Under the pieces are notes generated by a model. The model did not search any database. It was not told the origin of the DNA and worked only from the letters and a program-made list of their open reading frames with translations. The translations under genes and the position numbers were made by a program. DNA of 64,000 nt from Ruminococcus bicirculans (ex Wegman et al. 2014) (GTDB taxonomy: Bacteria > Bacillota > Clostridia > Christensenellales > DTU072). The DNA is taken from the NCBI GenBank assembly GCA_963642145.1, contig CAVIFU010000003.1:6433-70432 (forward strand). Direction: 5' to 3'. Below are positions 688 through 35,456 of the stretch, one piece after another (the first letter of the stretch is position 1; each line of letters starts with the position of its first letter).

Positions 688-716
688 TTGACAAAATATC
701 GCCGTAGGTATATTAT
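688..716 (+). promoter_or_regulatory. sigma-70-type promoter for the 751 gene
   Basis: TTGACA (688-693), 17 nt spacer, TATTAT (711-716), about 35 nt upstream of the ATG at 751. Confidence 0.6.
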
Positions 717-750
717 ATAATATATACGCGTATGCGCGCTACGGAGTTGT

Positions 751-3708: not shown

Positions 3709-3709
3709 T

Positions 3710-4549: not shown

Positions 4550-4559
4550 CGGAGGAAAT

Positions 4560-5885: not shown

Positions 5886-5897
5886 AAGGAGACTAAT

Positions 5898-6704
5898 ATG
5901 AAACTCAACTCAAAAGCGGAAACAGTGCATGGCAAAAAGTCCGTTTACACGGATTTGGTGATATCGGCGCACCAAGACGATATCGAGATTATGTGTCCCC
6001 AAGCGATAATTAAGGGATACCAAAGTAAAGAAAACGGCATGGTTGCCGTAGTTTGTACGGATGGCGCCGGCAGCCCGAGAGCGGGCGAATTTGCCAATAT
6101 GACGGACGAAGAGATGAAGCGCGTTCGCAGAGTAGAGCAGATCCGCGCGGCAGAGGTAGGCGACTATTCCGAGCTCATCATGCTCAACTACACTTCGGCG
6201 GAAATGAAGGATAGGAACAATCCTTCTCCCGTTGAGGACATCAAGGAAATAATACTTAATTACCATCCCGAAACCATGCACATACACAACCTTGCAGACA
6301 AGCATCCGACCCACGTCGGCACGGCGATGGATTGCATCAAAGCGTTGCGCGCGATACCAAAAGAGCTCCGTCCGAAGAAGCTGTACGGATGCGAGGTGTG
6401 GCGCAGTCTGGATTGGTTGGACGACGCCGAGAAGGTAGTGTTTGACCTTACGGGATACGAGAAACTCATGCGCGACGTGCTCGACGTGTACGTCAGCCAA
6501 ATAGCCGGCGGCAAGGCGTATTGCACGGCGTCGATCGGCAGAAGATTTGCAAACGCGACATACTCCGCAAGTCACGGCGTGGACATGTGCGAGCTTGCTT
6601 CCTACGCGATGGATCTCACTCCTCTCATAGAGGACGACGACTTGGATCCGCGCGAATTCATACTCGGCAAAATCAGGAAATTCGAATCGGATTTGCTCAT
6701 ATAA
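5898..6704 (+). CDS. PIG-L / LmbE family N-acetylglucosaminyl deacetylase
   Basis: AGGAG RBS. The motif VISAHQDDIEI (AHxDD, 5967-5981) and downstream His/Asp residues are typical of the PIG-L family. Confidence 0.75.
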   Translation: MKLNSKAETVHGKKSVYTDLVISAHQDDIEIMCPQAIIKGYQSKENGMVAVVCTDGAGSPRAGEFANMTDEEMKRVRRVEQIRAAEVGDYSELIMLNYTSAEMKDRNNPSPVEDIKEIILNYHPETMHIHNLADKHPTHVGTAMDCIKALRAIPKELRPKKLYGCEVWRSLDWLDDAEKVVFDLTGYEKLMRDVLDVYVSQIAGGKAYCTASIGRRFANATYSASHGVDMCELASYAMDLTPLIEDDDLDPREFILGKIRKFESDLLI

Positions 6705-6959: not shown

Positions 6960-6988
6960 TTGACAAACGAAAATCGTTGCCGTAAAAT
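6960..6988 (+). promoter_or_regulatory. sigma-70-type promoter of the giant gene
   Basis: TTGACA (6960-6965), 17 nt spacer, TAAAAT (6983-6988), about 100 nt upstream of the ATG at 7088. Confidence 0.65.
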
Positions 6989-7087
6989 AGTTGCGTAAGC
7001 GGACCGTATCGGTCCCGTTTGCGTATATACGCGCGTGACGCGCTTTGCGAAACGCCCGTAACTCCACCACCTCAAGGAGATTTCGCA

Positions 7088-10000
7088 ATGAAAAAGAGTT
7101 TGCTTTACAAGTCGGTGCTGGCACTGCTCATAGTGTCGCTCGCTTTGGTCCTCTTTGCCTGTTCGCCGAGGGAGAACACGTCTACCGATTCCGACGTCAT
7201 CCAAGGCGACAAAACGGACGTTGTTGAAGAAACGCGCCTGACGCAGGAGATTAAGCACCAAGAAGCCGAACAGATGATTAAGGACGGTATCGCCAACAAC
7301 AAGGCATACTATACTTGTTCCGACGATCCCGAGTGGTTCGTCATGGACGTAACGTTCGATTATTCGTTCGAGTACTTCTGGCTCGATTCCGCAGAAAGGG
7401 AGAGTACGAGCACCGCTTGCAAAGCCGTGCTCAAAGCGAACATCAATCTCAAAAACAACCAAAGAAGTCAGCTCTACTTCCAGATACTTAACGCGAACAG
7501 CGTGCCGGTATTTTGCGTTTACTACGCTTCGGGATACACGTATCTGGTGGTCGGTACCGATAAGTACTACATGCCGGAACTCAACTTTACAGAGGTGGGA
7601 AGTTTGGTTTACGGCGCTATCGCGGGTAACGACATAAATGTATTGCAAATCGTCAGCGGCTTTGTAACGGGCAGTTCTACGGGATTGGAATCGTTGCTCG
7701 GACAATATGCGGGCATGTTGTCGCTTGCAAAAAGTCTCGTTTTCAAAAACAAATCTTACGCCACGCAATACAATTACGACGCCGAAAACAAAATTTACAA
7801 AAGTCGTGACGTCGCAAGGGAGATAAAACTCAACGAAACGTTAAGTCTGCTGTGCGGTTCGGGTCTGAATCTCGGATCGTTGAATCTTTCGTTTGCCGGG
7901 ATATGGGACTTGGTCGGCTTGAACTTAGACCCCGTGCTCGGACAATTTTTGGGCTTCACCTTCGAGGGGCTGGGCGCCAAGGATTGGCCGTCGATGAGCG
8001 CGTACCTCACCACGCACACGGAGCTCGAAACATTTACCAAAACAAGCGATACGGGCATGGATTACACCGCGCAGGATTACGTAACCAAGGGTATAAACAT
8101 AACCATAAATACGGCTGCCGACGTAGAAGCCACGCGTGAAAAGTACGCGGGCTACACGCCTGCCGATATGGGCGAATCGGAGAAGGTTGAAGAATACTCC
8201 GTAAGTATAGACCTCTCGCCGATTTTGTTGTATGCGAGCGACAGCCCGATAAGCATTAACTTCGGCGAACTCGGATTAAACGAAACCGGGCGTCAGAATA
8301 CATATTCGCAAGGCAGTATCGGCAATATAGGGCTCGGAGCCACGTTGTTCGTCGAAAACGACGCCGACGGCAAAGTTACCGTAAATTCCGTTTTGGGCAA
8401 GGCGTTAGACGTCAATTTGGGCGCGCTCGGCGATATGGCTATCAATTTCCCTTACGCGGCGCGTTACGAGCTGAGCCTCGACGTCAAAGTCGCGCTCGAC
8501 TTTTTCAGCGCGCAAGCCACTCAGGCGGAAATTACGATCGCCTACAACGATTCTCCGCTGATAAGAGCCTTCCTCGACGGTACGGACTTATATTTGAATT
8601 TTGACGACGTCAAGTCGTTCTCGGGCGCCATAATCCCCAAAGTCAAGCTTTCGGGATTCAGCGTGAACGGATTGCTGTCGGACGTATTGAATAAAATCAA
8701 ACCCTACATAGACCCTAACTACACCAAGGTGAGTTCCGTCCTGAACGCTTCCGGCAGTTCGGGCTCCGCAGAGGAGGAAGGCGGTAGTTCCGTAGACGTA
8801 ATGAGCATACTCAAAGTAGTGCTCAACAACTTGGATCTCCCCGGCAGAGGCGAGTACCGCGTAGACAAATACGGCGATATCGTTCGCGACGCGGACGGCA
8901 ACCCCGTACCCAACGACTGGAACATCGCGCTCGTGCTCGATAGCGAAACGCTCTCGGAGATCGTCGGTATGATTATGCCTCTCAACGGCAATTTCGGCGA
9001 TGACCTCCAAGTCAAATTATCGTTTAACCAATTAGACTTCCTCAATACCATAGCTCTCGACGTAGACGTTACCGATACCGTCAGAATGGGATTGACTTTG
9101 GACACGATATCCTTTATCAAAGAGCACGACTTCGAGAACTACAACCTTGTCGACTCGGAAGAAAAACGCGGTGCGTATACGGATGTATCGGCGTTCCTGA
9201 TCAACTATAACTACAACATGTTCATGTACGGTGAAGTCGATCTCGGTATGCAGGAAACTTCCGACAGAGGCATAGATCTCGGCGGACTCATCGGACAATT
9301 CATAGACGGATTGTTGCTCTCCGTGCACGTGGAGCGCGGTCAAGACATACGCTTTGCGTATAAATTGGAAGCGAACACGAATATTACCGACCTCACCCAG
9401 ACGGAACTTAAACTGACCGTATACAACCCGAATAACGAAACGGTGTACATACGTCTGTTCTATATCGGACGCACGGATACGGTACTTATAGATTTGCAGA
9501 ATTTCTCCGCTTTGGAAGATCAAATCAACGGTTTGAGCTCGATAGGCGAATTGCCGAGGCTTAAATACGAGAACTTGGGGCTCAAAGATACGCTTGCGAG
9601 TATCGATATCGTCGGCGTACTCAGCGGAATACTTACCGGACAAAGCGAGCAAAACGGACCTTACTCCATGACGTTGGATACTTCCGATCCCGACTTCATA
9701 GTCAAGACGCGCGACGCCATAGTAGGACTTTTGAGCGTGTTCGGCGCGATAAATTCCATTGACGGCTCTATCGACAAAGACGGACTGAATAATGTTTTGA
9801 AGGCGCTCTACGGAGCGGAAGACGACGGTGCGGACGGCGAAACCGGATCGGGCATAGATATGATGACGATACTCGGCGCCGCTCTCGACGGAGTGAACGT
9901 CGACGCCATAGCCGGCACCCTTACCGCAAATATAGCCGCCAACGTGTTGAGCGTGCTCATGACGCTGTTGCTTGCGCCGGTAGACGAATTCGGCAATCCC

Positions 10001-13000
10001 AAGACCATCGATATGCCGGAAGTCAACGCTTATCTGCGCGTTCAACTTCTGAATTTTACTTTTGACGGCAAAAACTTACCCGAAGACGGTTACGTCAAGC
10101 TCTATTTAGCCATACGCGACAGCGGTAACAAAGAAATTGACGCCGTTTACTTCGAGGTAGACTTAATCAAAGACGTGGGCGTTCGTACGGGAAGAATCAA
10201 CTTGTACGAAGATATAATCGAAAGCGACTACGAGAGCACGTTCAAGACGATACAAGCCTTCCTTGACGACTTGGTCGTAGGTTTGCGCGTATCGGGCGAA
10301 CTCGATATGTCCGTAGAGAACGAACCCGTTTGGAAGGTGGACGAAAACGGCTCCGTTGTCTTGGACAAGGACGGCAACAAAGTCCCCTCTGTAGACGAAA
10401 GCGGCAATATAATTTACAGCGACAAAAAGATAAAAGAGTATACCAACGCTTACATCAACGGCATTCTCTCCGGGTTGCTTACGGGGCTCGGACTCCGCAT
10501 AGACACCACGGACTTCAATATAGCCGTCGGATTTGAAATCGTAGCCAAAATATCCTTTGCCGGCGCAATCAAGTTGGACGGTTCCGAGGGCGAGGATCTT
10601 ATACCCACGATACTCAAAAAATCCGAAATCAAAGTACGCTTGTTCGACAACCGCTCGTCGGATAAACCCTCCATACTCGGTCTGTACCTGAAGGACGGCA
10701 ACGCGTACCTTGATTTATCCTATTTCGACGTGCCGAGCATAGGCGTAACCGACGTCGATAAGCTCATCTCCGATATAGGCGATTTGACCGGCTCCAACGA
10801 AGCGAACGCCAAGAAGGCGGAAACCGCGCCCGCGAATCTGATGAATCTGAACAGAGTCGCGCAATACGCCGGCGTTGCCAATGCCGAAGCGGTTGCCCTG
10901 CAAGTCATCCTTAATCCCGAGGCTTTGACGGTAACTTTGACCAAAGACGCCATCGCGGGACTTGTCGGATTGTTCCTAAAAGATACCGCGCTTCCCGTTG
11001 CCATACAGGAAACGGAGCTTTCTTTGGGATTCGGCGACAAAGGTTTGACGCTCGATGTTACCACCGGCGTAGACGTATTCGATCTTTCGCTGAGCGTTTC
11101 CAACGTAGGCATAGACGTTGACAAAGAAGCTTTGAGCGGTCTTAACTACGAAGTAGACGTACCTGCCGACGTCGAATTCTATATGACGGAAAACGGCATG
11201 CCCGTAAACGTATACCTCGAACTCGGCGGATACCTCAACATAAATTCCGAGCCCTTGGAAGGTAAGGACGCCAATATCATAGATCTTGCGCCCGCGTTGA
11301 GCGGTCTTCTGAGCGGAGTCGAACTCGGCGCCCTCATAGAATTCCTCGGCATTGTGGACGAATCGTTGTTCTTTGAAGTCAGAGGCAGCGTAAACCTTAA
11401 CGAAATCGTGGATATTGCCAAGAACGGCTTTGATTTTGCCAAGATCAAAGAGTCTGCGCTCTCCGTTACGCTCAAAACTTACGCAAGCAGCGATCCTACC
11501 GACGTGGACGCGGACGGCAACAGAACGCTTAGGAACGTTTTGGAAATATACTACGTGGACGGCGACCTCTACGCGCACATAGACACCGCGATTGTCGAAC
11601 TCCAATACGTATACGTGCCCGACGCGAACGAAGTAATTTCGGAGCTCATAGGACGCTTCAACGGCGGTAACACCGATGAGGAAACGCCTCAGTCTGCCGC
11701 CGACACGGAAGAAGTCACTCAGGATGAGATCATACAATACTACATCGACCTCGTACTCGGAGAATACGGCATTTCCGTAAACATCACCAAGGCGCTTCTG
11801 ACCGGCGTATTCAAGATGCTCGGTTTGGATTTGGACGCATATATTTCGGGGCTCGATCTCGAAGCCGAGGTTGCGTTTAACGCCCATCCGCTCGAAGCGT
11901 ACCTCAACCTCAAAGTGCGCGACGTAGGCGCAGACGGCGTCGACGATCCCGATACGGATAACCCCAACGACGGCAACTTTGTCAGCCTTACCGCTTCCGT
12001 AGACAACCTTAAACTGATGCTCGACAAATCCTTCACCCTTTCGGAGGAAGAGAAATCGCATTACAGCACGATCGAGACTCTCGATACCATAGGCGTTGTC
12101 ATCAGCGGCGCGGCTAAGTTCGAGATCACCGCTACCGGCGATACCACCGATCCCGAAACGGGAGCAAGCGGTAACATTACATCGCTTACGAACATCCTCA
12201 ACGAAATCAAAGCCATCATAGACGCTTCCGCGACCAAGACCAAACTTACTTGGATACGCGACGCTTCCCTCGGCAAATACGATACGGACGACGTAAAGTA
12301 TTCCGATAAATCGGATTCCGAGCTGAGCATCATCTACGATAGAGACATCACCGTCAAAGACTACACCAAGCTTTTGAACTTCGGACTGATCCTTGAAGTT
12401 ATCGGCGACGTGGTGGACGGCAAATCCGCATTCGGCGGAGAAGTATATTATGAATTAGAGGCGATACTGGATATCACGAATATTGCCGACTTGAAGGCTT
12501 CCTTCTTCCTGAGCTCGTCGCAGAAATCCGAAGACAGAGGCAATATCCTTTGGGTAAGCGTCATGGGCGTGGACGACGGCAACGGCAACTACGACATCAA
12601 CGTATTTGCAGACCTAACCAAAGTCCTGAAAGAAGGACTTGTGGTTGAGGACGTCATAAGGGTCAATAACTTCGGCGCCTTCAAGACTTACATGGAGAAA
12701 TTCACCAAGCTTGCTGTGGGTGCCGAGGCGCAATTCGATTCCGCAATGCCGCTCAACTCCTCAAATAACCGCTTGGAGTTGCCGCACAACGCTGCCGGCG
12801 ACGTCGTACCGAGCATTATGACGGGCGCGAGCGTCGTGCTTGCCATCACCTCCAAGGCAGGCGACTACAATATCCCCAACGAGGCTCCCATAGCCTTGAT
12901 AGTACCTTCTGCCGCGGTTTACTCGCTTGCGGATATGTTGCTCTCCGGCGATTCCGCGTTTGAAGTGGAGATAGACGAAAGCAAGATAACCTCTTACGTC

Positions 13001-28000: not shown

Positions 28001-31000
28001 TGCGTAGCCACCAATGTGACGAGGCTTTCCGCCGTCGAGTACGCGAACTTCGTATACCTCAAAGGCACGGATAACTCGGGCTACATGATAGTCGCGCTCA
28101 GCGATTGCGAATCGGATACGCTCAACGCGGTCACGCTTTCGGGAGTACAACAATTCACCGAGATAGCGTCTAACAAAGCCAAGAACTACGCGGCGCGCTT
28201 TGGCGCAATTACCGCGTTCGCCGGCGAGTCCACCGCCAATAGCTACTACTATGACGAGGAAAGCGACGTATTCTACTACGTATACGAAGGCGTAAGCACG
28301 GATGACTTCAACCTCTACGTCAAGTCATTCGGCGAGGATAACCGCCAAGAGATCCACAACAATTACGAAAAGTACGATACTCTCGGCACCGGCGCGACCG
28401 TATACCATTACAGGAAACTCGTCAATTCTTACGAGGCGGAGTTGACCGACAGAGACGGCGAAAACGTCATCGTGGTCAATCCGATTTTCGGAACGGATAT
28501 TCACGACAAGCTGTCCTCAGTTAAACGTATAGACATCACCGTCAACGAAACCGACAGGGATAACGAACCTACCGGCAATAAGACGGATATAACAAGATGG
28601 TATGTCGAATCCGTAGACGCCTCTTCCATAGCAAACGTAGACTTCAACGCCATCAGCCACGAAACCTACACGGTATACTTCAACGTCAAGGACGATATAG
28701 GCAATACGCAAAAGATAGCCGTTAAGGTAGAAGTTTTGCCTAAGAAGGTTGTCACGAACAACCTCGACGAAACCGTCCCGACCGACGGCAGAGTAATTAC
28801 TCCGTTCGATACGACGAGAGAATCGGCGTCCTTAGCCGTCTACTACAAGAAGAGCGGCTCGGACGGCACGATGATCCTCGGATTGTTCCCGAAGGGCACG
28901 GCGACCGCGTACACTTACCCCGATCTCACCGCGCTTACCGGAGTGACCGCGTCGAGCTTCCCGACAAGCATCGTCAAGGAGTACGGCTCGGTACCCGAGT
29001 TCAGCGGCGCGCGTAGCGGCATAACCGTCTACACCGACGGCGACGTCAAGTACATAGCGATTGAAGGCGTCAGCCTCGGCGTATTCCAAGAGTACAAGAA
29101 TAAACTCACAGAGCAAGGCGTCGTAACCACGGCAAGGGAAGACAGACTCTCCGAGTTTGCGTCCCTCGATAACAACCTGAGCGCGTATGTCGCGACCGGA
29201 TCGCTCAACGTGTTCGGACTGCCTACGAGCATCAACGTAGGCTACGGCACTGACGCTAATAACGTTTACCACAAAACGACGATATACGAAGGCACCGACT
29301 TCGTATGGATTGCCGATTCCGCGGACAAGCTCAAATACGATTACGATATGACAAGCGAGACTTGGACGTACACTTGGACGGCAAGAATAGGCACCGGCGA
29401 CAACGTGCAAGAGCTCCCCGTAGTCTTCACAATCAACCGCAGAGTGCCTTCGAGCATCAAACAAATCACCGTTTACCCGTACAGCGAGTACTACTCCAAC
29501 GGCGCGCAAGTCACGGATAAAGCATGTTCGATCGACAGTGAGCAATCGGTTATTTACTCGGACGGCACGGCGCGCAAGACAAAGGTATACTTCCGCATGG
29601 ACGGCGAGTCGTGGCAAGGCAAAGTAGAGGGTACGCCCGTAATCATCAACGGCGTAACCTACTTGACTGACGTCAGATTCATAGATCCTTCCTTCGACGG
29701 TAGCTGGTACTTTGCCGACGCCATCATGCAAGACGACGTATTCGGCACTTGCACCATAAAGAACGTTCGTATCATAGTAACCAAGAGCACCATTTCCTCG
29801 CTGGATATTCCGAGCAAAGAGATCTACGTCTATGACGCGGATAACGACATAACCGCATACCTTGCGCAGGAAGGCATAAGAGCGAACATCTATCAGATCA
29901 AGAATAACACCATCGGCACCAAGGCGTTCGAGATCATCGGCTGGTCCTATGTAGACGAAGACGGATTGCTTCCCTCCTACACTTACGACGGTAGCGACGT
30001 ACCGCAAATCAAGGTACTCATCGGCAACGTCGGCTACAAAGCGGGCAAACACGTTTGGGCGCAAGAAGTCACCGTCAACCTGTCTAAGGACGTTTACCCC
30101 GCCAAGGTATTGAAGAGAATCAACGATGTGAACGACGGCGGATACAGCCTCACGTACAAAGACGGCGGATATGTCATCGCCATAGAGGATCCGTTCAAGT
30201 TCGCCATGCCGACAGAGCTTACCGTAACGTTCGAGGACGGCACCGAGGGCGTCGTACCCGTAGAGTTCGACTTCGGCAAAGACGGTATTGACTTCTACAA
30301 AGCGACGGACGGCATCAAGGGCACCATGACCTTGGGCAACAAGGCAAACAATAAGGTTACGTTGAATGTGACTTACGTCAACGAGAATCCGCGTACGCAG
30401 ATAAAAGTAACCTACTACTCCGACAAGGATTGCGCCGAAGAGTTCAACATCTTCACCTACAACGCTTTCGACGTCATCAGGTTGCCTAAGTACGCGAAGT
30501 TCACCGTAGGCGGCGTTCAAGAAAATAACGTTTACGACGTAATTTGGGATTCCGTGGAAGCGTACTCGAACGAGGGCGGTACCGTCAAGGCGGTAAGCCT
30601 CATCGGCGACGACGTATTCGGCTACTTGAAGGACGTTGTGGAACTCACGATTAACGCAGAAGACATCATTGACTACTCGTTGCCGAGCATTGTAAGCGCC
30701 AATCCGTACAATATGAGTGCGCTCGGCGCGCTACTCGGCATCGACGGCGACGTATTGCCCGTCACCACCCTCGTAAACGGCGTCAAAGTAAACAAAGAGC
30801 TGAGCGTCAAGTATCCGACCATTGCAATAGATTATCGCAATACGGTTACGCACCTTACCGATATAGAGGTAGGCGTAACGCTTGACTTCGGCGGCGTCAA
30901 CAGGATAATGGACGGCGATACCGATATCGGCAAAACGCTGGAAGTAAGGAAAGCTCTCCCGATAACCGTAGTAGTGGAAAGCCGCGTTGCCATAGGCGTC

Positions 31001-34000
31001 AAGACGTGGTTCACCACCGAAAGCACCAACATCACCGGCAGTATCTACGAGCCCATCGACTTTGCTACTCTCGGCAGAGCGACGGTAGTGGCTGTCGGCA
31101 AGGACAAAGACTACGGCTCCAAGCTCCTGTCCGGCAAGACGACATTCGAAGACGTCATCGCCAACGCGACGCGTTTGGATTCCGAGATGTGGCCGGAAGA
31201 GATCAAGACGTGGAGCGCAATTGCCGATAAGGCAAGGGCAAACGGACAAATAGGCGCGGTTTACTACTCCGAAAGCGAGCAAACCTACTACGTATGCTAT
31301 CGCGGAGACGTAGACCTCGACTTGGTAGATTCCGCTTTGAAGACGGCAGGCGCAAGACAGACCGCAGGCGCGGATTGCATATCCTATTTCGATCCTAACG
31401 GCAACGTGATGGTACAAGCCAAGAGCTTCGAAGAGGGCGTAACCGTACTCTTTGAAAACGCAGAGGAAGAAAAGTACGACATCGCGTGGGATACCTCGTC
31501 GCTCAAATACACCTATGCCGGCGGTACCTATACGGTAAGGGCAACGCTTGCAAAGGGCGATAAGGAATTGGAGCAAACATTCTACGTCAAGGTGTACGTC
31601 AAACCCGCTTCGCTCGTATCCATAGGCGTCACGTCCGACGGCTTGGAGGAAGGTTCCGTCGTAAAGAGCGAGAACGGCATCATCAAAGAACTTGTCGTAG
31701 ATCCGTACATCGGATTCGTAGGACTCCCGAGCAAGGTCATGGCTTACTTCAACGGCTACAATTCGCCGATTGAGATTGACGTAAGCTGGAATTTCAGCAA
31801 GATTTTGGCTGAGATGACGTCTAAGGGCGGTACCTACGACGCGACCAACAACAAGGCGGCGGTAGCGTACGTTTACGTCACCGACGCAGACGGCAACAGA
31901 ACGGCGGTTCAGACCATTGAGGTACCCGTAACCGTACTTGACAGGAGCCTAAACAGCATACTATTCTCCTATTTCGCGTCACGCGCGGATTACGAAGAAG
32001 CGCGCGAAAACGGATATGGCGGTCAAGAGTTTGTCGAATATTCCGGTGAACTCTATGTAAACCCGTACCTGACCGCGTACAGCGAGGACTTCGATTCCGA
32101 AAACTTCGCGTACTACAGGAGAGTGTTACTGCTCGTCAACAGAGTGGATACCGACGATTTGGACGACAACGTTTGGAGCGACGCATACAAAGAGCTTGCG
32201 TTCAACCTTAATAAAGATTCCTATGTGATCAGAGATATTTCCACAAACAGGGCGACCGACCTCAACAACCTGTACACCGGCAGAAAGATCGACGTACGCA
32301 TTTCGTTCGGTTCTACCGGCGACACCGTAGGCTCCGACACCAAGTTCTCGCGCAGTATAACCACAACCATCTACAACATGACGTACGCGAGCGGACTTAT
32401 ATCGGAATACGCGGTAGACCCGTACGGCTTAGAGGGACCGACTGACGTATCCGCGTTTACAAGTTCCGAGAGGAAGACGATAACGACCGTATCCGGCGAA
32501 ACTATCGATATGGACGTAGCGTATGATTTGACAAACGCATATCCGTATGACGCAAACGGCAACGTGAAGATCACCGTCAAGGGCGGTACGCGTGAAATCA
32601 AAGCGACGTTCGGTAACGAATACGGCGGATACCAGACCAAGATCATCAACGTGAAGTACGCCAACAGGGAAATCAAGAGCTTGTTCGACGTCGACGACGG
32701 CGGAAGCTACGCCTACTCGAACGACAGCGGCGCGGTACAATTCGAGATTGACCCGTTCGTACATTACGAGAAGGGCAAGACATATCCCGCGGCAAGCAAC
32801 ACCGTGCGCTTCAAGTATGACGCACTCGTCGCAAGCTACGGTGACGCCGAATCCCACATAACGGTAGAGTGGGACGACGAAAACGTCGAGCTCAGCTACA
32901 AAGGCAACAAGACGTCCTACGCGCTTGCCAAGGTAACGGGCGCCGGCGGCGTATACGAGCAAACGCTCAGATACAAAGTCATCGTACTCGATAGAACCGT
33001 AACCTCGTTCGATAACATTCTCAAAGAGAACGCGGGCAAGATTAACCCGTACGAATACAGCTTTGAAGACGACGTTTCGTCCGCGGTAGTCAGGGATATG
33101 TTCCAAGCGAATGCCGACTTCAAGGTGGTATTCGGCAACATGACCAGAAACCCCGTCACCGGCGAATCCATAGACGAGGGCGACGAGCCGATGAGCATCA
33201 CCTTCACCCTCGGCGGCAAGGCTTCCAACAACGGATACACCTATACGGACTCCGACGGCAACAAAAAGACCTACACGTACTACCTTGCGGAAGGCGAAAG
33301 CGACTACGATTTGAGATTCGTACTTGACTCCGCAAGGGGACTCGGACACAAGGGCAAGGACGCAAGGTTCTACATCACCATCCCGGGCTTTGCACTCGGC
33401 GCCAAGGGCGAGCAACTTGCTTCGTTCGACGTGCCTTGCGAGCAAGCATACATGATGGGCGCAAGGTTCTACAACGGCTCGGGCGACGAAAACGACCCCA
33501 AAGCTTACACGCTCACATACCTCGATTGGTTAAAGAGTAACTACTCGGCAGATACGGAGATTATTCAACAAGTGCCTTACGCTTACGGCGCGTACCACGG
33601 AGATACGTATAAGATTTCCAATCCGTACTTCTTCATCTCCATGGGCGGCGTACCGTTGCCGGATAAGGCTCTCGTGTACGTAGGCGCGCTCTATGACTCG
33701 GACGGCAACTACCTGTATACGGATAATCCGGAAGGCGCCTACGACACGCAAAACAGCTCCTACTCCTTCTTGACGGAACTCGGTTGGAGCAATACGGTCA
33801 ACAGCAAGACGCGCATCAAGTATGACGAAGCGGACCACACTTCCGCATTCCAACTTGACCTCGACGGACAAACGTATAAGTTCAGATTCGCCGTAGATAC
33901 GAGCTGGAAGCTGTCGGAAGAAATAATTATCAGCGAGACGTACAAGTACGGTAAGGAAGAAGTAATTCTGATGCCCGATAACAGCGCGGTCAACACGCAG

Positions 34001-35317
34001 AACCCCGTATTGGAGATAAGCAGTTCCGGTACCATTTCGGGATCGCTCGGACGTAACGACGACTACACAATCACGTTCGACAACGGTTATACGTTCAAGT
34101 TCCAAGGCGTGTCCGGCGGCGGAACCTACTCCGACAACTACATGAAGTGGAACTTTGATTCCGTCAACTGGTCGGCAGACGGCAGAACGCCGCAATATGC
34201 GACGATGACGCTTGGCGGTAAGGGCGGTCAAACGGTCAAGTGGCGTTTCTACGTCAATAGCGACAAGACGCTCGTCAACAATTCCGTCAAGACGTTGTAC
34301 GCCATGAAGGAGGGCGAGACGATTACGCTCGAAGAGAGTTACAAACAGCTCTTCACCGGGTACACCTTGAATCAATTGAGATCCATCCCGTTAATGTACT
34401 CTAAGCTCAAACGCTATTACTCCAAGACGGTTGACAGCGAGGGCAACGAGACTTATCCGTTAGGCTTATCGACAAGTCGTGACGAAGGAACCGTCCTCAC
34501 TGCAGGCGACACTGTTACCGCGAATAAGGCTACGCCGAACGAGCATCGCTCCGATGACGATTCCGCCTACACCGGCTACATCGAGTGGAGCGCAACTACG
34601 TCGCGCGCATATCCCAACCCGAAGGAGAAAGTCGGCGGTACCATAGTATTCTGCGTATATCGCGATCCTACAACCAAGGATACGGACGAAGAGATCAAGG
34701 ACAAGAAGACGTACTACAACTTGCAAGACTACGGCGCGCGCATCCATAACCCCGACGCCATGTTCGGATATAACGAACTCCGTCCGTTGTTGCCGACAGG
34801 CTGGGAGTATCCTTCCAACATGATGGATACCGGCGTTGTGAACATCGGCGAGAATTCCAGAACGATGCCGCAAGACGCCACGGCGTACCGCATACAGTAC
34901 AATAGCACTACCGGTAAGTACAAGCAAAACGATACGCCTATAATCACGGTTGCCGCCGGCTCGATGTTCGATTTGCGTTACCTGCCGATGATTTCCGTCA
35001 AGGAATATCGTCCGTCGGTAGAAGTAAAGGGCACCAGCGTCCTCGGTATTACCATTACGAGTAAGACCGTTGACGGATTCGAGTACGACCTGATGTACCT
35101 CATCCCGTGGAATAAGGCGCAAGTCTACTACACAGACCAGAAGTACGATCTGAGTAAGTGGAATCCCTCCAACAGCGCGTACGGCAGATTGGTATCGGAA
35201 GGCTTTGCCGGCATCAACTTCGAGGATAAGCGCATAGGCGGTAGATACACGATAGTGTGCTCCATGGAGTTCGACACCGGAACGTTACCGATAGTCGTGG
35301 CAATAGACGTTGTATAA
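7088..35317 (+). CDS. Giant (~9,409 aa) cell-surface lipoprotein with a novel repeat-module array and Ig-like domains
   Basis: The track shows one uninterrupted ORF at 7019..35317. The preferred start is ATG 7088, 8 nt after AAGGAG (7074-7079). The N-terminus MKKSLLYKSVLALLIVSLALVLFAC is a type II signal peptide with a lipobox. The TAA stop at 35315-35317 is followed by a hairpin terminator. Confidence 0.9.
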   Translation: MKKSLLYKSVLALLIVSLALVLFACSPRENTSTDSDVIQGDKTDVVEETRLTQEIKHQEAEQMIKDGIANNKAYYTCSDDPEWFVMDVTFDYSFEYFWLDSAERESTSTACKAVLKANINLKNNQRSQLYFQILNANSVPVFCVYYASGYTYLVVGTDKYYMPELNFTEVGSLVYGAIAGNDINVLQIVSGFVTGSSTGLESLLGQYAGMLSLAKSLVFKNKSYATQYNYDAENKIYKSRDVAREIKLNETLSLLCGSGLNLGSLNLSFAGIWDLVGLNLDPVLGQFLGFTFEGLGAKDWPSMSAYLTTHTELETFTKTSDTGMDYTAQDYVTKGINITINTAADVEATREKYAGYTPADMGESEKVEEYSVSIDLSPILLYASDSPISINFGELGLNETGRQNTYSQGSIGNIGLGATLFVENDADGKVTVNSVLGKALDVNLGALGDMAINFPYAARYELSLDVKVALDFFSAQATQAEITIAYNDSPLIRAFLDGTDLYLNFDDVKSFSGAIIPKVKLSGFSVNGLLSDVLNKIKPYIDPNYTKVSSVLNASGSSGSAEEEGGSSVDVMSILKVVLNNLDLPGRGEYRVDKYGDIVRDADGNPVPNDWNIALVLDSETLSEIVGMIMPLNGNFGDDLQVKLSFNQLDFLNTIALDVDVTDTVRMGLTLDTISFIKEHDFENYNLVDSEEKRGAYTDVSAFLINYNYNMFMYGEVDLGMQETSDRGIDLGGLIGQFIDGLLLSVHVERGQDIRFAYKLEANTNITDLTQTELKLTVYNPNNETVYIRLFYIGRTDTVLIDLQNFSALEDQINGLSSIGELPRLKYENLGLKDTLASIDIVGVLSGILTGQSEQNGPYSMTLDTSDPDFIVKTRDAIVGLLSVFGAINSIDGSIDKDGLNNVLKALYGAEDDGADGETGSGIDMMTILGAALDGVNVDAIAGTLTANIAANVLSVLMTLLLAPVDEFGNPKTIDMPEVNAYLRVQLLNFTFDGKNLPEDGYVKLYLAIRDSGNKEIDAVYFEVDLIKDVGVRTGRINLYEDIIESDYESTFKTIQAFLDDLVVGLRVSGELDMSVENEPVWKVDENGSVVLDKDGNKVPSVDESGNIIYSDKKIKEYTNAYINGILSGLLTGLGLRIDTTDFNIAVGFEIVAKISFAGAIKLDGSEGEDLIPTILKKSEIKVRLFDNRSSDKPSILGLYLKDGNAYLDLSYFDVPSIGVTDVDKLISDIGDLTGSNEANAKKAETAPANLMNLNRVAQYAGVANAEAVALQVILNPEALTVTLTKDAIAGLVGLFLKDTALPVAIQETELSLGFGDKGLTLDVTTGVDVFDLSLSVSNVGIDVDKEALSGLNYEVDVPADVEFYMTENGMPVNVYLELGGYLNINSEPLEGKDANIIDLAPALSGLLSGVELGALIEFLGIVDESLFFEVRGSVNLNEIVDIAKNGFDFAKIKESALSVTLKTYASSDPTDVDADGNRTLRNVLEIYYVDGDLYAHIDTAIVELQYVYVPDANEVISELIGRFNGGNTDEETPQSAADTEEVTQDEIIQYYIDLVLGEYGISVNITKALLTGVFKMLGLDLDAYISGLDLEAEVAFNAHPLEAYLNLKVRDVGADGVDDPDTDNPNDGNFVSLTASVDNLKLMLDKSFTLSEEEKSHYSTIETLDTIGVVISGAAKFEITATGDTTDPETGASGNITSLTNILNEIKAIIDASATKTKLTWIRDASLGKYDTDDVKYSDKSDSELSIIYDRDITVKDYTKLLNFGLILEVIGDVVDGKSAFGGEVYYELEAILDITNIADLKASFFLSSSQKSEDRGNILWVSVMGVDDGNGNYDINVFADLTKVLKEGLVVEDVIRVNNFGAFKTYMEKFTKLAVGAEAQFDSAMPLNSSNNRLELPHNAAGDVVPSIMTGASVVLAITSKAGDYNIPNEAPIALIVPSAAVYSLADMLLSGDSAFEVEIDESKITSYVNDGVYSEDEYYYALRGLTETHAEALAVALEKGELTSQNYTIANAYWTAFVASLNGVHERDEETIAEYNTTVGTFISTYTAIFESEQSINQTFTTIDQTAIDALKTAFEAFRTFYEDTLKPSAATVKDPEEAQIENLRKGLRTIRIEELKKQKEEGTLSEYNFDYLYKGILHTVEGEAVDPSSLVKINIADFFGVHDPSLLIEIGATSVPDAESGTRTAFLLVNVSLAELLTLQLEIDKVTVSISPDDSYYVGKPDDNGNIIGGLLKQSYHWINPDEMWEQHIVISINGELDLDAADTDDDTAIDLSSLISSILSTADFGAMIRNQGLDPTKITYELSVNANLHDILKTVATKDIYWLLVRSEVLLRIGFNGTREYYDKETGKYVEDRDCTEYISLYYEDGTAYIDGSVIGVQKVKVETALKNLFDFIGAGDLSKYYEISRDDERSAFAADNTETESYALNAPVTAEEYLPYVRLAFGNQTGIVIEVMSEVLFTVLSGLDLGENFPIKDLGSVVRESLNGNLEFQLGVMTKLGLLDEKWSKEEKDLLSLALKAGNYTVGLKLSEIALDLRDSSESSVSIKPDDIKEHEYQQSENLENVYAEFAIDIDFDGVNGTKFNLDETVDGILGRLGINSDGSVNSTVETIRGLGLEPIIQLLSTLSSHYRIELKANINFAEIIDEKTFYDSNFALYLRDRDTLIDYGDGQGEVCKEVLSAHYVDRSLYLNAECFNIQATRIDNFWDFINEIIKIYVPEKGETDDTEAEDTDAQTEEIKNATGFAGYESKDGFDPFGLIRQVTDGTANSVATYINILACPEGLVLSIGTTALFGVLRALGGEAMDFESYVQPIGELNIEASLLGPEDIIKLGVKFEGYEFSGDERINIGTDENPEYKKHGDIGFSFGIVNDFTLAFNYQWLANKYYTDDTYEVVTINKSISAPDKAHVDDGNDGYEDIEYTAVDLTDPVIGLSTVLYIDLAAGEITGSGITGTVTREYDENGELKGVHFDGYDLNKEPLTSLLAGVIDATLAILLEINGTNTLNIELEILVNFPLRNYKGVEAQVTLRDVNAGNILFRANLHNSNLYVDLTYLNGPKFTVEDVLETLLGEKEFEDDLLGDLFGNLFGGNKSSSGVQNASGAQNASSSTTTPVNLDLGVERIIKGVMTHGIALYVTETALNSVLGTLKMANMKIFSDVLVQIGLAAKSNSFILAVDVEAQAEYTDKSLNSVKSKVIDLGLGIDGLRLNFKGFSNEELLLPQTANYIKAHEVNVITLGTSVEIELGINGGTIGLENLYKELLSKDGAVAGLIGGSDNPFYTLIEQSDVLTGVLPKMVMLGDVGDTLVFDISAMIPIKSGLEGLLSDMQLKLEIYSKTCREKFDIVLTYYKNQLYGDFSSIGLGKVYVEDVDFLINWFKDLLGGSGEETEPASASLTNMSSLQNAFSDKYPSWSSALGLNNADSGDSLVGIVKILLNQDDGLLITVTFEMINTLLKMVGVDIGLEKYLAGVVNPSATVGITTRPAYEVGIHIDTAQTTTPQWIWDEETKTYTKGEDTEGNDGGMDLALRLLGDTVKIGVENESVVYTPYGLQSTLTPLISESERATYKMFNEVALNLGTNLSLRLDLDDGLVQINALLDTILGIIGMKMPEDYDTKLVFGGGNETLYCEINVRVGVDLAKLLSVKTEDITKAITLEFTMQYTIIDNTTNEVYLNQKILQIYMLNDVIYAGIELFDTELGVKVADLELSDTIRGLMEKLFIVDDVEDDVTTDGDKTEESTAQNSSANPILDMYEATKDNVGNTPIGKLMTPMIYLNSQGFALMLTNELLVASIDAILKIFNDGAIGTQDGDPLVLDRDDITFIANEILDYATVGVYFDPDKEGNMSVKLNITKEAGEKEETGEDAKWYDSVGYGITLSLFHDSLLIVNTETYEARLNYLANDEEHVAYYNNCLDSRDVTWRVNLGLDLSVGADISEYILNWSSLFVNEKDEDGNTTGAGFYIQALQDIVGELTLRIKADVVLTALDEWAVDAIIQLVKLKEDGTYVGNDDVEEEIFALYIVGSLNDAATYQEKGVRVYMTLGAMDQYGLSGITLDSSVFEEFLDLNVKALLEALGGKLSTAVEGSLVKSLSDLMDKMKEILKDIGGRASDEIEETVESNPQNAEEDVDSNGTEDPYAVEEEEEETPVAWYAGLFDSIRFTKGAISLVVAQTAIQTILKQLFNFPFEDKVGELALTLDNANNSLKLSFGTDYQEAENVSQIDIDRLIPTIADDASVSTITAEIEGLEYEVLGVTDKLFLSGLQVAYNGRTVIAEASSAYLSNTKATEVKGISDGEVRYLVYDVNKMFTVASDKAEDAASSVANAIITRLAGTPSAHGRYKQDTTEDGTTYLVARDGALKARVAVKKCGSKVLVAYAKSFSGMEIPSLNISSVTPDVLGTNLVSLTTEEEANEEIRREYDDKFLEGITVNGKALTAESVYVQAQKLYGGKADKYEVENPGTRNVFYYVFDPSDYYESESGFTAEELKANAEELKQIISDAFRAGTYTRYMTQDRAIHKLYRYETQFNVSVKVAEVTDDSGNIGYKVLLGAATDRSMFNVYLKIHGLDLGLGEGNIFKEMPLGGKIRDGKTEYEVNGEKVTYDYNDYFEEQFKPLSDYKWEFEAYSELTIDDTVGGIFDMSDLLGVVGSLVGGDIGNIVSAINFALQPIDDVAITFGLAVRGYIDFSDFTPIRLQVELTNQGKTMLLLTYVGGYDSDENGDYENSTIYLDLSGLGFPSVKLEGIQLGAVIKKVVGNLGGNNASDEQQSADKDTQTESSDTVNPSNASAPDRVYLKDKDIDFKMLLLTLGDENASIAITGALLCSLIANIAANDKISSILGGLDIEVPLFRNLQIGYSKEDNLAGVILRLTDDTPYEKALRIGFNFRGKDETQEGYGSYTKFRTGDAQSTTIAPREHVEGEKEEGIVYEDISVITKVALGVELETRVRTKDTEKSSQLQALETLLQTLLAGAGLLPDSDGVINLDVQNTMLVFNLGLNVYTDLSDLTETTIQLSLKLSGEDLLGIYFLGKTNTVYVDLEGLGFFRAAVNGVDLIGILNNFVGGFLGDDGLEIGEMLTGLINGLTNASQQDAAASASIAEDTDAPRNAAIDLVTSTDSPLLKILVSNEELIINPNVAILQKLVGDSMILPKITDIRLGINLYQGLNNFNLKVKLDQKGNYVSLGIPEGGLNVLVGKDSENLKLYTIGDESTYGGVIGISLGVDSAGSISAGIDASKLAQGLLDTIELSDFTLYLEKRNDYFFFRNLAYKVSSGTFDFSEFGTSFSTGPTVFSTLADSTTWSKYSTTTDGKELNPYDVAFVSNGQAFSLTIGSWDIGKYIKTYEPIFFDNAYRRVAIYANKSVQNVVELDIRQLTQVGNVETYANSDDWEPMGLTAFIKDNVIKLSLDNLLVIDLTGLINQITGFLLKSIVSAISGPAGTVVSALWSVIGPAISGYIADLIGNFSITIGGVEYGNYGNPLKVGKLVTDILSKGDVGIGVFNIYLPTLLGNTAEEENSYGSLFGNVNALANATDNTYAPVEGAKVTLLTGNKEKYVTYTDEDGDYTFVNIASGTYNVKITCDKYNDIPRVGQSNPQVTVYSYYDKPAMEANFTMTKYEEGSWTNITIHGVVERETAVNVVEKVEGAVVYIQNDNEWHEVGKTDANGAYSGTLNLTLKSSYHSMKVENTPVGTIWSSVTLTFNNEGGTNTDYTVNFKYWVGREAEKVPTIKATILVRDFGDNLLTGTASSVYAKYARTDEGEGTSFNANAVHSGSAINGTVINDNFSGAEHAASYSENDVFYDVYEFSSVDDLKTGVKALADAIKALEKDNVKIYDVTEIISGLYYRAESYSEASAIEIRGFVGQSYKGELSYRAIIARKAAKTAAAEESGFEIWLEKDNRTIRNSDSFSGASNNVITVTKEDGSEDSARTNYAQNTARNYLSVIRDGEDGKVLKLSDIEDEATRNKNAVYNQNSGVATIKYLGYSTYTVKVRSTLYENVTIGTVTLTEDKYDIDMGEIILTPKTKPSWIEQENEAERMLQGLRIRLGADTLDASSQGVSGQDPETDAGYTQDGIPLTKYSYLQSLGDKTVNALIHTATGQISSAIGNAIGNAIGGTGGSIVGSLASRGLNALFGQIGGADTSSQYLDAVGKPIFVPWTNYVNGYEQGVKDASDSVTYIEAWVSSDLINNIVSTVHNLLMAYTGYGSISKDRRFTSADLCKIPDGTSEDDIKHLKFSGEFSEDLEEKWGDYAFSSQTDYTDMLYEAGGRLVGSFAVFAVNSLVTLDPKWMNLIQMLAYSIDAIKEILDQVTRLVSHALPLTSGYSMIMEKDLPGSPLNQTEIYSTVWEYNTAYGYMDIEKKTVLGGTKTREMYQPSFSTKDVNGNSLTVEEKSSSSYTFAQGANSISKVTISDDNALGKVVGQRSTNVQDLVANSGVLDKGDNLVGYNYNSGIYANDKIKTTVDDNPVFDDDGELVSGYKRELDFIDKSVYAKVVLNKASGTLLDRIVLFVNGATYSNTASGMLVNQTDYMPNATELRADTILYNEDGSYLSEQYEAMDKIIQKWISTNTVNSYVVISDYKYSASETGVITSTLIGKTYVRDVYGHFDSEDFAYGDISWMVSENNYDKDFNVESVSYRYASRYPLNSDFSLNYTALTLSDMPYVQARSIMSAKDDRFMEIDINNTGLRLRSVSTIGNNLYNSTPNGTSGMSETVTQPPTKIVFHDPYNILDFTAYGGTWTEAYGGVRHNINNDGSYSVNNINDILPNRAYATFTDGTSNGSSGVEMYWDFTMLSMVPSTEGTTGYIRGYVGEETYSKNAQGTVTYIQAVVEGGLLINIDSTDNIKGQPERNKQDATLFAIDENNKEKALTLPEIDPLNFDKDEYLASLPKTIVYTAKMRYEREGSYQTFTVYGQETDYIVKRYVFNDVSWDIDLSTVSYSGEPATLKLTYRFTPSKDTEGNTLGEPSESVTVNVPVSVKNCVATNVTRLSAVEYANFVYLKGTDNSGYMIVALSDCESDTLNAVTLSGVQQFTEIASNKAKNYAARFGAITAFAGESTANSYYYDEESDVFYYVYEGVSTDDFNLYVKSFGEDNRQEIHNNYEKYDTLGTGATVYHYRKLVNSYEAELTDRDGENVIVVNPIFGTDIHDKLSSVKRIDITVNETDRDNEPTGNKTDITRWYVESVDASSIANVDFNAISHETYTVYFNVKDDIGNTQKIAVKVEVLPKKVVTNNLDETVPTDGRVITPFDTTRESASLAVYYKKSGSDGTMILGLFPKGTATAYTYPDLTALTGVTASSFPTSIVKEYGSVPEFSGARSGITVYTDGDVKYIAIEGVSLGVFQEYKNKLTEQGVVTTAREDRLSEFASLDNNLSAYVATGSLNVFGLPTSINVGYGTDANNVYHKTTIYEGTDFVWIADSADKLKYDYDMTSETWTYTWTARIGTGDNVQELPVVFTINRRVPSSIKQITVYPYSEYYSNGAQVTDKACSIDSEQSVIYSDGTARKTKVYFRMDGESWQGKVEGTPVIINGVTYLTDVRFIDPSFDGSWYFADAIMQDDVFGTCTIKNVRIIVTKSTISSLDIPSKEIYVYDADNDITAYLAQEGIRANIYQIKNNTIGTKAFEIIGWSYVDEDGLLPSYTYDGSDVPQIKVLIGNVGYKAGKHVWAQEVTVNLSKDVYPAKVLKRINDVNDGGYSLTYKDGGYVIAIEDPFKFAMPTELTVTFEDGTEGVVPVEFDFGKDGIDFYKATDGIKGTMTLGNKANNKVTLNVTYVNENPRTQIKVTYYSDKDCAEEFNIFTYNAFDVIRLPKYAKFTVGGVQENNVYDVIWDSVEAYSNEGGTVKAVSLIGDDVFGYLKDVVELTINAEDIIDYSLPSIVSANPYNMSALGALLGIDGDVLPVTTLVNGVKVNKELSVKYPTIAIDYRNTVTHLTDIEVGVTLDFGGVNRIMDGDTDIGKTLEVRKALPITVVVESRVAIGVKTWFTTESTNITGSIYEPIDFATLGRATVVAVGKDKDYGSKLLSGKTTFEDVIANATRLDSEMWPEEIKTWSAIADKARANGQIGAVYYSESEQTYYVCYRGDVDLDLVDSALKTAGARQTAGADCISYFDPNGNVMVQAKSFEEGVTVLFENAEEEKYDIAWDTSSLKYTYAGGTYTVRATLAKGDKELEQTFYVKVYVKPASLVSIGVTSDGLEEGSVVKSENGIIKELVVDPYIGFVGLPSKVMAYFNGYNSPIEIDVSWNFSKILAEMTSKGGTYDATNNKAAVAYVYVTDADGNRTAVQTIEVPVTVLDRSLNSILFSYFASRADYEEARENGYGGQEFVEYSGELYVNPYLTAYSEDFDSENFAYYRRVLLLVNRVDTDDLDDNVWSDAYKELAFNLNKDSYVIRDISTNRATDLNNLYTGRKIDVRISFGSTGDTVGSDTKFSRSITTTIYNMTYASGLISEYAVDPYGLEGPTDVSAFTSSERKTITTVSGETIDMDVAYDLTNAYPYDANGNVKITVKGGTREIKATFGNEYGGYQTKIINVKYANREIKSLFDVDDGGSYAYSNDSGAVQFEIDPFVHYEKGKTYPAASNTVRFKYDALVASYGDAESHITVEWDDENVELSYKGNKTSYALAKVTGAGGVYEQTLRYKVIVLDRTVTSFDNILKENAGKINPYEYSFEDDVSSAVVRDMFQANADFKVVFGNMTRNPVTGESIDEGDEPMSITFTLGGKASNNGYTYTDSDGNKKTYTYYLAEGESDYDLRFVLDSARGLGHKGKDARFYITIPGFALGAKGEQLASFDVPCEQAYMMGARFYNGSGDENDPKAYTLTYLDWLKSNYSADTEIIQQVPYAYGAYHGDTYKISNPYFFISMGGVPLPDKALVYVGALYDSDGNYLYTDNPEGAYDTQNSSYSFLTELGWSNTVNSKTRIKYDEADHTSAFQLDLDGQTYKFRFAVDTSWKLSEEIIISETYKYGKEEVILMPDNSAVNTQNPVLEISSSGTISGSLGRNDDYTITFDNGYTFKFQGVSGGGTYSDNYMKWNFDSVNWSADGRTPQYATMTLGGKGGQTVKWRFYVNSDKTLVNNSVKTLYAMKEGETITLEESYKQLFTGYTLNQLRSIPLMYSKLKRYYSKTVDSEGNETYPLGLSTSRDEGTVLTAGDTVTANKATPNEHRSDDDSAYTGYIEWSATTSRAYPNPKEKVGGTIVFCVYRDPTTKDTDEEIKDKKTYYNLQDYGARIHNPDAMFGYNELRPLLPTGWEYPSNMMDTGVVNIGENSRTMPQDATAYRIQYNSTTGKYKQNDTPIITVAAGSMFDLRYLPMISVKEYRPSVEVKGTSVLGITITSKTVDGFEYDLMYLIPWNKAQVYYTDQKYDLSKWNPSNSAYGRLVSEGFAGINFEDKRIGGRYTIVCSMEFDTGTLPIVVAIDVV
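7532..22450 (+). repeat. Protein-level array of about 14 diverged ~330 aa modules inside the giant ORF
   Basis: Motif A (consensus roughly x-Y-[LVI]-D-L-x-x-[LF]-G-x-x-K-[VI]-x-V-E-D-V) begins at 7532, 8585, 9476, 10697, 11558, 12587, 14195, 15149, 16223, 17138, 18137, 19184, 21245 and 22163. Motif B (G-h-x-h-x-h-T-x-x-h-h-x-x-h-h, for example GISVNITKALLTGVFKML and GLLITVTFEMINTLLKMV) begins near 8920, 9916, 10921, 11767, 12885, 14440, 15439, 16481, 17407, 18418, 19570, 21517 and 22450. Confidence 0.8.
23671..25140 (+). other. Carboxypeptidase-regulatory-like (CarboxypepD_reg) beta-sandwich domains within the giant protein
   Basis: YAPVEGAKVTLLTGNKEKYVTYTDEDGDYTFVNIASGTYNVKI (23671-23800), GAVVYIQNDNEWHEVGKTDANGAYSGTLNL (~23990-24080), and GYSTYTVKVRSTLYENVTIGTVTL (~25000-25080). 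Confidence 0.6.
27350..35300 (+). other. C-terminal run of Ig-like domains of the Big_4 style (LP-x-x-h-x-h-x-F-x-DG-x...V-x-W-D) within the giant protein
   Basis: Recurrent anchors include LPNRAYATFTDGTSNGSSGVEMYWDF (27353), PTELTVTFEDGTEGVVPVEFDF (30208), LPKYAKFTVGGVQENNVYDVIWDS (30484), LPSKVMAYFNGYNSPIEIDVSWNF (31722) and HITVEWDD (~32860). Confidence 0.55.
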
Positions 35318-35325
35318 TAGAGAGA

Positions 35326-35356
35326 GGGCTGTTGAGGAATTTCAACAGCCCTTTTC
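35326..35356 (+). terminator. Rho-independent terminator of the giant gene
   Basis: 10 bp perfect stem GGGCTGTTGA / TCAACAGCCC, loop GGAATT, then TTTT. Confidence 0.85.
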
Positions 35357-35425: not shown

Positions 35426-35456
35426 ATAAAGGTACCACGGAGTGGTAAGAGGTTAT

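Follow-up and report, generated by a model that had tools for sequence, protein, structure and literature searches.

A giant lipoprotein gene and its expression signals

We analysed a stretch of 64,000 nucleotides (nt) from Ruminococcus bicirculans (contig CAVIFU010000003.1 of assembly GCA_963642145.1, positions 6,433 to 70,432; hereafter the window), in which one open reading frame (ORF) encodes a predicted lipoprotein of 9,409 amino acids (aa), here called the giant. According to the ORF list, positions 7019–35317 (+) form one continuous stop-free frame. The coding sequence covers 28,230 nt (7088–35317, +), from an ATG at 7088 to a stop codon at 35315–35317, and is matched by collinear orthologues. 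At 52% GC, a stop-free frame of 28 kb cannot have arisen by chance.

The expression signals assigned to this gene in an earlier reading of the DNA (the original prediction) could each be located in the sequence. A sigma-70-like promoter candidate (6960–6988, +; TTGACA-17-TAAAAT) agrees with the consensus at 11 of 12 positions, by consensus match only. The ribosome-binding site AAGGAG (7074–7079, +), read from the sequence, ends 8 nt before the ATG. Downstream of the stop codon lies a terminator-like hairpin (35325–35352, +) with an 11-bp, GC-rich stem followed by TTTTC. Owing to the short T-run, a terminator scanner scored this hairpin exclusively on the minus strand. The lipoprotein signal peptide (7088–7162, +) carries the lipobox L-F-A-C, identified by a regular expression, with Cys25 as the predicted lipidation site. 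The N-terminus MKKSLLYKSVLALLIVSLALVLFAC matches the pattern of Gram-positive lipoproteins (G+LPP-type). Its positively charged n-region, hydrophobic h-region and lipobox of the form [LVI][ASTVIF][GAS]C are also kept in homologues. Neither lgt nor lsp occurs in the window.

As had been estimated, the protein is acidic and poor in cysteine, with exactly 26 Cys and 1,402 Asp and Glu versus 746 Lys and Arg residues, giving a net charge of about −650. No internal transmembrane-like segment was found across the 9,409 residues. An LP.[TSA]G motif occurs at no position, and the C-terminus reads ...TLPIVVAIDVV. No wall-binding Pfam domain was detected either, and the N-terminal lipid anchor is the sole recognisable tether.

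Integrity of the giant gene

The source of the window is probably a metagenome-assembled genome (MAG), and in principle the frame could result from an assembly artefact or a chimeric join, or a pseudogene in decay could have been read as a single ORF. The GC content is flat at 0.50–0.53 through the ORF and the flanking DNA. Near-identical DNA repeats within the ORF are at most 29 nt long, and the only two tandem arrays are trivial. With such small repeats and uniform GC, a repeat-driven mis-assembly is implausible. The Logan assembly of run SRR13434599, made independently, matches the window at 100% identity over aa 8472–9409 of the giant and at 99.95–100% over the downstream genes. Furthermore, a scan of species-representative genomes yielded eight loci in MAGs of uncultured Clostridia/Eubacteriales (36–47% identity). 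In six of the eight, no stop interrupts the frame between the start codon and the point where the fetched DNA ends (4,567–4,635 codons; 13.7 kb), and single tblastn high-scoring segment pairs (HSPs) span aa 1 to approximately 4,500 of the giant. Full-length relatives are collinear with it.

On the other side, one or two frame changes interrupt the orthologue in each of five related contigs (L001–L005, from the four ENA assemblies ERZ16268077/289/235/058 and the NCBI MAG GCA_017502785.1). The positions of these changes differ between contigs and protein similarity continues over each break. They could be assembly indels or reflect strain-level or recurrent inactivation. Taken together, the data support the original view of one real gene rather than a fusion; we regard an artefact, a fusion or a pseudogene as extremely improbable and this reading as close to refuted.

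An undescribed repeat unit in the N-terminal half

The first ~5,000 residues had been described as resembling no nameable repeat family. This holds for Pfam, but the region is not featureless: with motifs recognised by eye, iterative profiles and a hidden Markov model (HMM), we resolved it into a series of about 15 divergent copies (7394–22861, +; aa ~103–5258) of a single α/β unit of ~250 aa that had not been described before. Self-BLAST of the giant gave faint internal matches only, and the module emerged from the motifs and profiles. Pairwise identity among the copies is 13–25%. Thirteen copies are clear and two are weak. An HMM trained on the family delimited a partial unit 1 (aa 103–198), units 2 (aa 312–554), 3 (aa 617–854), 4 (aa 924–1244), 5 (aa 1260–1535), 6 (aa 1538–1870), 7 (aa 2238–2403), 8 (aa 2477–2732), 9 (aa 2832–3095), 10 (aa 3116–3408), 11 (aa 3506–3731) and 13 (aa 4517–4766), and a weak unit 15 (aa 5103–5258). 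Unit 12 (aa ~3765–4085) was placed by eye and alignment, not by the HMM. The best-conserved copy, unit 14 (21440–22327, +; aa 4785–5080), which the HMM likewise delimited, served as reference, and jackhmmer retrieved 395 instances of the unit in 100 proteins of the family.

Each unit follows a common plan of a helix, about five long strands, and a closing strand motif 'hYhDL....V.V.D' with a helix. The next unit begins with 'GhxhxhTxxhLxxhLxxLG' after an acidic linker. These linkers are stretches of 30–55 residues with low hydrophobicity that are predicted to be disordered, and seven of them begin directly at unit ends. Two examples are aa 4747–4789 (21326–21454, +) and aa 5075–5106 (22310–22405, +).

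We modelled aa 4550–5500, 10% of the giant, with AlphaFold2 (AF2) and 20 orthologues. The mean predicted local distance difference test score (pLDDT) was 58.8. Blocks of long antiparallel strands with packing helices, among them those of unit 14, reached 70–85, and the residues under 50 were exactly the linker segments (model residues 204–247 and 506–560 for the two example linkers). In this model, aa 4550–5500 looks like an arrangement of beads on a string. An earlier model, of aa 60–1250, had a pLDDT of 36 with a four-sequence alignment and was not used. Foldseek returned no significant match for aa 4550–5500 in PDB or BFVD (best E 0.019 and 0.065, respectively; none at or below 0.001). Matches to an MHC-I-like platform were non-significant, with template modelling scores below 0.25, and were rejected. 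Judged by its sequence profile, the unit is a previously undescribed domain that can now be defined.

A family of giant lipoproteins in uncultured Clostridia

When the two ends of the giant, 1,500 aa each, were searched against a word-indexed database, five fragments only were retrieved, with 45–48% identity; the N-terminal ones among them (P0001–3) also carry the LFAC lipobox. Profile A2 of the unit gave no match in the word-indexed database at its size. An exhaustive HMMER search with the same profile against 1.84 billion representatives identified 127 clusters, 72 of them at E < 1e-10. About 24 of these clusters are giants of 5,000–7,924 aa with 7–14 unit stretches each, most with 11–14. 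A lipobox start is present in 21 of the 24 family giants of at least 5,000 aa, and the remaining three are N-terminally truncated.

Several lengths recur in independent assemblies. A length of 7,879 aa was found nine times in NCBI genomes, and lengths of 7,264–7,268 aa occurred nineteen times. Up to 12 contigs encode a protein of 5,593 aa, and 26 contigs, one of which measures 1.04 Mb, encode one of 7,108 aa. The longest match in the representative library has 7,924 aa; the 9,409-aa giant is missing from the collection while its neighbour is present. Protein libraries may drop entries above about 8,000 aa, and thus the length statistics of the family may be truncated. Given this possible cut, we do not claim that the giant is the longest family member.

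Using BLAST and MAFFT, we found the giant to be collinear from residue 1 to its last residues with P0011, P0012 and P0014–P0017 (21–35% identity; end-to-end comparisons were made with P0011, P0012, P0015 and P0017). The C-terminal half keeps the same order in P0011, P0012 and P0014–18. More distant subfamilies have the N-terminal repeats in common with the giant and differ in the C-terminal half. In 14 shorter distant members, Big_4 was the sole recurring Pfam domain, accompanied by one Flg_new match. The only source names in the family are 'carboxypeptidase-like regulatory domain-containing protein [Clostridia bacterium]' (for example MFA5448907.1) and 'hypothetical protein [Eubacteriales/Clostridia bacterium]' (for example MDY5440424.1).

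On the basis of its many copies of the ~250-aa unit and its end-to-end collinearity, the giant belongs to a definable family, as yet without a name, whose members are giant lipoproteins from uncultured Clostridia/Eubacteriales. The protein had been called unassignable; this is correct in that no named family claims it, but it is no orphan, as the 127 clusters present in public databases show. Relatives of full length do exist, but at 7,100–7,900 aa they are shorter than the giant by four inserts. The giant thus shares with the family the lipobox start, the unit and the usual number of unit stretches, whereas it and its close clade are ~1,500 residues longer.

The C-terminal region

The C-terminal region (23585–35314, +; aa 5500–9409) is rich in β-structure and aromatic residues and is the proposed distal binding part. 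Over the C-terminal ~4,200 residues, the Leu content is halved compared with the N-terminal part and Tyr, Trp and Phe account for 10–14%. When the giant was cut twice, with an offset, into slices of 1,000 aa, Pfam searches matched CarboxypepD_reg and Big_4 only, in two stretches each, together covering less than 2% of residues; these fragments do not amount to a full-length match to any characterised adhesin family. CarboxypepD_reg, a prealbumin-like β-sandwich, was found at 23660–23821 (+; aa ~5525–5578; E 1.3e-12, 48 bits against a cutoff of 32), followed by its second stretch, both within aa 5525–5680. The better stretch of Big_4, a bacterial Ig-like domain of group 4, lies at 31439–31552 (+; aa ~8118–8155; E 5.8e-7, 29 bits against a cutoff of 22). 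Big_4-like motifs of the form 'LP..V.V.F.DG....V.W' also occur at aa 6756, 7707, 7799 and 8213.

Comparison with the collinear relatives located the four inserts. A helix-rich insert (12935–13567, +; aa ~1950–2160) appears as a gap in the BLAST collinearity and is absent from the relatives of 7,000–8,000 aa; in the close clade it is present, inside single HSPs to L006–L009 and L012. By collinearity and HSP comparison, an insert at 19715–20737 (+; aa ~4210–4550) is also specific to the close clade. The third insert (28085–29197, +; aa ~7000–7370) contains small β-β-α elements that recur at aa ~5777, 7044, 7310 and 8050, and the fourth covers aa 8004–8118. At least the first two are common to the close clade.

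Despite an identity of only 28–37%, the relatives contain the blocks 'IVFHDPYN..DFT.YGGTW', 'YVRDVYGHFD' and 'RIRLGAD.LDA' unchanged, and aa 6050–7000 are highly conserved among them. Such invariant blocks, together with the glycan-processing enzymes encoded nearby, would fit an enzyme or toxin that is tethered to the surface and whose catalytic domain, lying for example within aa 6050–7000, has diverged beyond the reach of the libraries. Against this stand the searches of Pfam, NCBIfam, PHROGs and PDB, none of which gave an enzyme match, in line with the lack of a catalytic motif noted originally. In addition, the C-terminus is conserved, unlike that of polymorphic toxins, and no small immunity-like gene follows the giant gene. 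We consider a hidden enzyme or toxin improbable.

The same conservation bears on a role that would require no specific ligand. The net charge of about −650, the acidic disordered linkers after each unit and the pattern of common N-terminal repeats with C-terminal halves that vary by subfamily would all suit a structural or protective part of the envelope, a dense polyanionic brush of bead-and-linker chains that sets the spacing of cells, retains cations or water or shields the cell from phages or host factors. Inside the subfamily, however, conservation is residue by residue throughout the C-terminal 4,000 aa. This speaks for a specific function over and above bulk and charge and makes a pure brush, in our opinion, unlikely.

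Relation to known classes of surface proteins

Beyond its signature of a bacterial lipoprotein, the giant fits none of the established classes that we searched for. It has no C-terminal LPXTG-hydrophobic-positive tail as in sortase substrates. The Pfam slices contained no SLH, choline-binding/CW_binding, cohesin, RTX, FIVAR, Rib or cadherin match, which sets the giant apart from S-layer and choline-binding proteins. Arrays of Big, FIVAR, Rib, cadherin or Cna-B domains, as expected for Ig-repeat adhesins of the Bap, SiiE, LapA, Ebh and Rib/alpha-like type, do not form the bulk of the chain. No HemolysinCabind match typical of RTX proteins of type I secretion systems (T1SS) was found, and a Sec/lipoprotein signal is present instead. 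With respect to cellulosomal scaffoldins, Cohesin (PF00963) remained unmatched at E up to 1 in both slice sets; very divergent cohesins beyond the reach of Pfam are possible in such a sequence. NCBIfam and PHROGs searches were empty, as were sequence and profile searches of PDB with both halves of the giant and profiles A2 and A5.

Three further candidates were rejected. The long β-strands had suggested an AsmA/TamB-like bridge-like lipid-transfer protein; no AsmA, DUF490 or Chorein Pfam match was obtained, and the AF2 model shows discrete domains and disordered linkers, with no continuous groove and no Foldseek match. A polymorphic toxin disagrees with the C-terminus conserved in the subfamily, the lack of a toxin domain and the identity of the next gene, which encodes a 2,114-aa surface protein. 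A phage tail fibre or prophage protein is contradicted by the absence of a PHROG match, the best BFVD E-value of 0.065 and chromosomal neighbours.

Ebh of Staphylococcus aureus, a protein of ~10,000 aa, has a YSIRK signal, a C-terminal membrane anchor and helical FIVAR/GA repeats. The giant resembles Ebh in size and as an acidic, Cys-poor, cell-bound chain of many modules presumed to project from the envelope. In contrast to Ebh, it has an N-terminal lipid anchor, an undescribed α/β unit, disordered linkers and no FIVAR match. The Gram-negative adhesins SiiE, LapA and MpIBP are type I secreted, with an N-terminal plug, near-identical Big repeats and C-terminal RTX repeats. The proposed logic of a stalk with a distal ligand-binding part is common to them and the giant, as are Ig-like modules in part of the chain, whereas the giant shows none of their type I secretion, plug, near-identical Big or RTX features. 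Like cellulosomal anchoring scaffoldins, it is large, surface-bound, non-catalytic and multi-modular, and its gene lies beside that of a dockerin-bearing protein. Unlike these, it has no detected cohesin or SLH domain and carries a lipid anchor rather than an SLH or sortase anchor.

Among giant proteins of Clostridia, West-Roberts et al. described examples of 10,000 to more than 30,000 aa with RCC1, Listeria-Bacteroides, YG, LRR or dockerin repeats and proposed adhesion as their function (10.1101/2023.11.21.568195). They share with our family the origin from uncultured Clostridia, the very large predicted size and the proposed adhesion, but their repeats are absent here save for the one Flg_new match in a distant member. 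Bacterial proteins of more than 5,000 aa belong mainly to nonribosomal peptide synthetases and polyketide synthases or to surface-attachment classes (PMC11573180). The size of the giant had been called very rare. Proteins above 5,000 aa are indeed rare, but they number tens of thousands in UniProt, most of them eukaryotic with a sizable bacterial share, and surface proteins make up one of two principal bacterial classes among them (PMC11573180); for this reason the size is less surprising. The family defined by profile A2 is absent from those listed in these two surveys (PMC11573180; 10.1101/2023.11.21.568195). What is new here, within the theme of giant surface proteins, is the repeat domain, together with a lipid anchor, in a family that was already present in public databases and never described.

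Gene neighbourhood

The genes upstream of the giant gene (751–5885, +) encode a transglutaminase-like lipoprotein with Big_2, a 279-aa mutarotase-like protein and a ROK-family protein, and their order is kept in L003, L006, L011, L012 and L013. A PIG-L/BshB-like deacetylase is also encoded upstream in the window. The first of these genes (751–3708, +) specifies 985 aa with Big_2 and a transglutaminase-like core and precedes the giant gene in five related loci; its product has a weak NCBIfam match to the Mycoplasma MAG6410 transglutaminase-related lipoprotein family. Genes of an amino-sugar type flank the giant gene on both sides (3710–6704 and 42501–43976, +), comprising the TTE1925-type mutarotase-like, ROK and PIG-L/BshB-like deacetylase genes and a GH20 β-N-acetylhexosaminidase gene.

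Downstream (35442–43976, +), a 2,114-aa RCC1/Big protein, a 239-aa lipoprotein and the GH20 hexosaminidase follow, with synteny in L004 and L005. The 2,114-aa protein (35442–41786, +) contains RCC1 repeats and Big_2/Big_3 domains, is encoded directly downstream of the giant gene, also in L004 and L005, and ends in two canonical dockerin-type Ca-binding loops, DADGNGVIDSDD and DYDGDGRVNLTD; the Pfam Dockerin_1 score is slightly under the cutoff. It also has an HExxH motif near its N-terminus, and its orthologues give a weak Peptidase_M6 match. The 239-aa lipoprotein (41773–42492, +; lipobox LFAGC) has no Pfam or NCBIfam match, and the position of its gene immediately behind the dockerin-tailed one is conserved. 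On visual inspection, the second half of this lipoprotein resembles a small β-sandwich and could be a divergent cohesin-like module.

A dockerin-tailed neighbour conserved next to the giant would imply a cohesin partner somewhere. The giant itself might act as a cellulosome-like scaffold whose unrecognised cohesin-like modules dock this neighbour and other proteins. The adjacency in L004 and L005 and the report of dockerins on giant Clostridia proteins (10.1101/2023.11.21.568195) speak for such a scaffold. However, the giant gave no Cohesin match at E up to 1, the 14 distant family members gave none either, and the 239-aa lipoprotein is an equally plausible partner. We regard a scaffold role as quite unlikely. 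Overall, the neighbours link the giant loosely to amino-sugar glycans and extracellular protein assemblies.

Proposed function

We favour, with somewhat better than even confidence, a lipid-tethered, highly acidic and flexible stalk of ~15 novel domains that carries a distal β-rich binding region. Following general lipoprotein biology, Sec would export the giant, Lgt would place a diacylglycerol on Cys25 and Lsp would remove the signal peptide, so that the outer leaflet of the cytoplasmic membrane would hold the N-terminus. Beside the anchor, the bead-and-linker region would then form a long, flexible, polyanionic spacer through the wall. On a rough geometric estimate, this spacer could project the C-terminal region by ~100 nm or more. 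There, the distal region might bind a glycan or particle surface, another cell or partner proteins, and attachment would be the function of the giant.

Several points weigh against this stalk model. The crossing of a wall depends on the cell-envelope type of the organism. The proposed binding head draws on composition, Ig-like fragments and analogy, with less than 2% of residues matching a curated domain. The AF2 model is of medium quality and covers a tenth of the protein. The frame changes in L001–L005 would count against the model if they mean that the gene is often inactivated, and the synteny of the neighbours may equally be explained by inherited gene order and shared ancestry in one lineage.

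Still more speculative, and in our judgement unlikely, is the idea that the unit represents a new fold and that monoderm gut Clostridia have in this family a so far unrecognised class of bead-and-linker tethers, which are anchored by lipid and span the wall. With the conserved dockerin-tailed and lipoprotein neighbours, these tethers would organise an extracellular apparatus for glycan harvesting or cell contact. If true, they would represent a principle of surface display different from that of the sortase, SLH and T1SS systems. Only if the scaffold or this tether idea is true would a new principle of biology follow.

Giant surface proteins shape the attachment of gut anaerobes to particles, hosts and each other. 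Nearly all of those studied consist of known repeats with known anchors, whereas more than 98% of the 9,409 residues of the giant lie outside curated domain libraries. The unit family is almost confined to lipoproteins of 5,000–9,400 aa from uncultured Clostridia. Its definition makes the family searchable and annotatable, and ~250 aa is a tractable target for structural biology. In a lineage that has no cultured members, the giant is also a candidate for a surface marker or an adhesin.

Other genes of the window

A second very large ORF (53167–62283, +) encodes a protein of 3,038 aa that carries a membrane anchor at its N-terminus and matches nothing in Pfam. Its exact sequence is present in five assemblies (NCBI and Logan). 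BLASTP against the giant lipoprotein gave no E-value better than 1.7, and we rejected this ORF as a paralogue. On the minus strand, positions 48989–50380 encode a stand-alone 463-aa protein with a Condensation domain of the nonribosomal peptide synthetase type, which adjoins genes for an α/β hydrolase and a phosphodiesterase-like protein.

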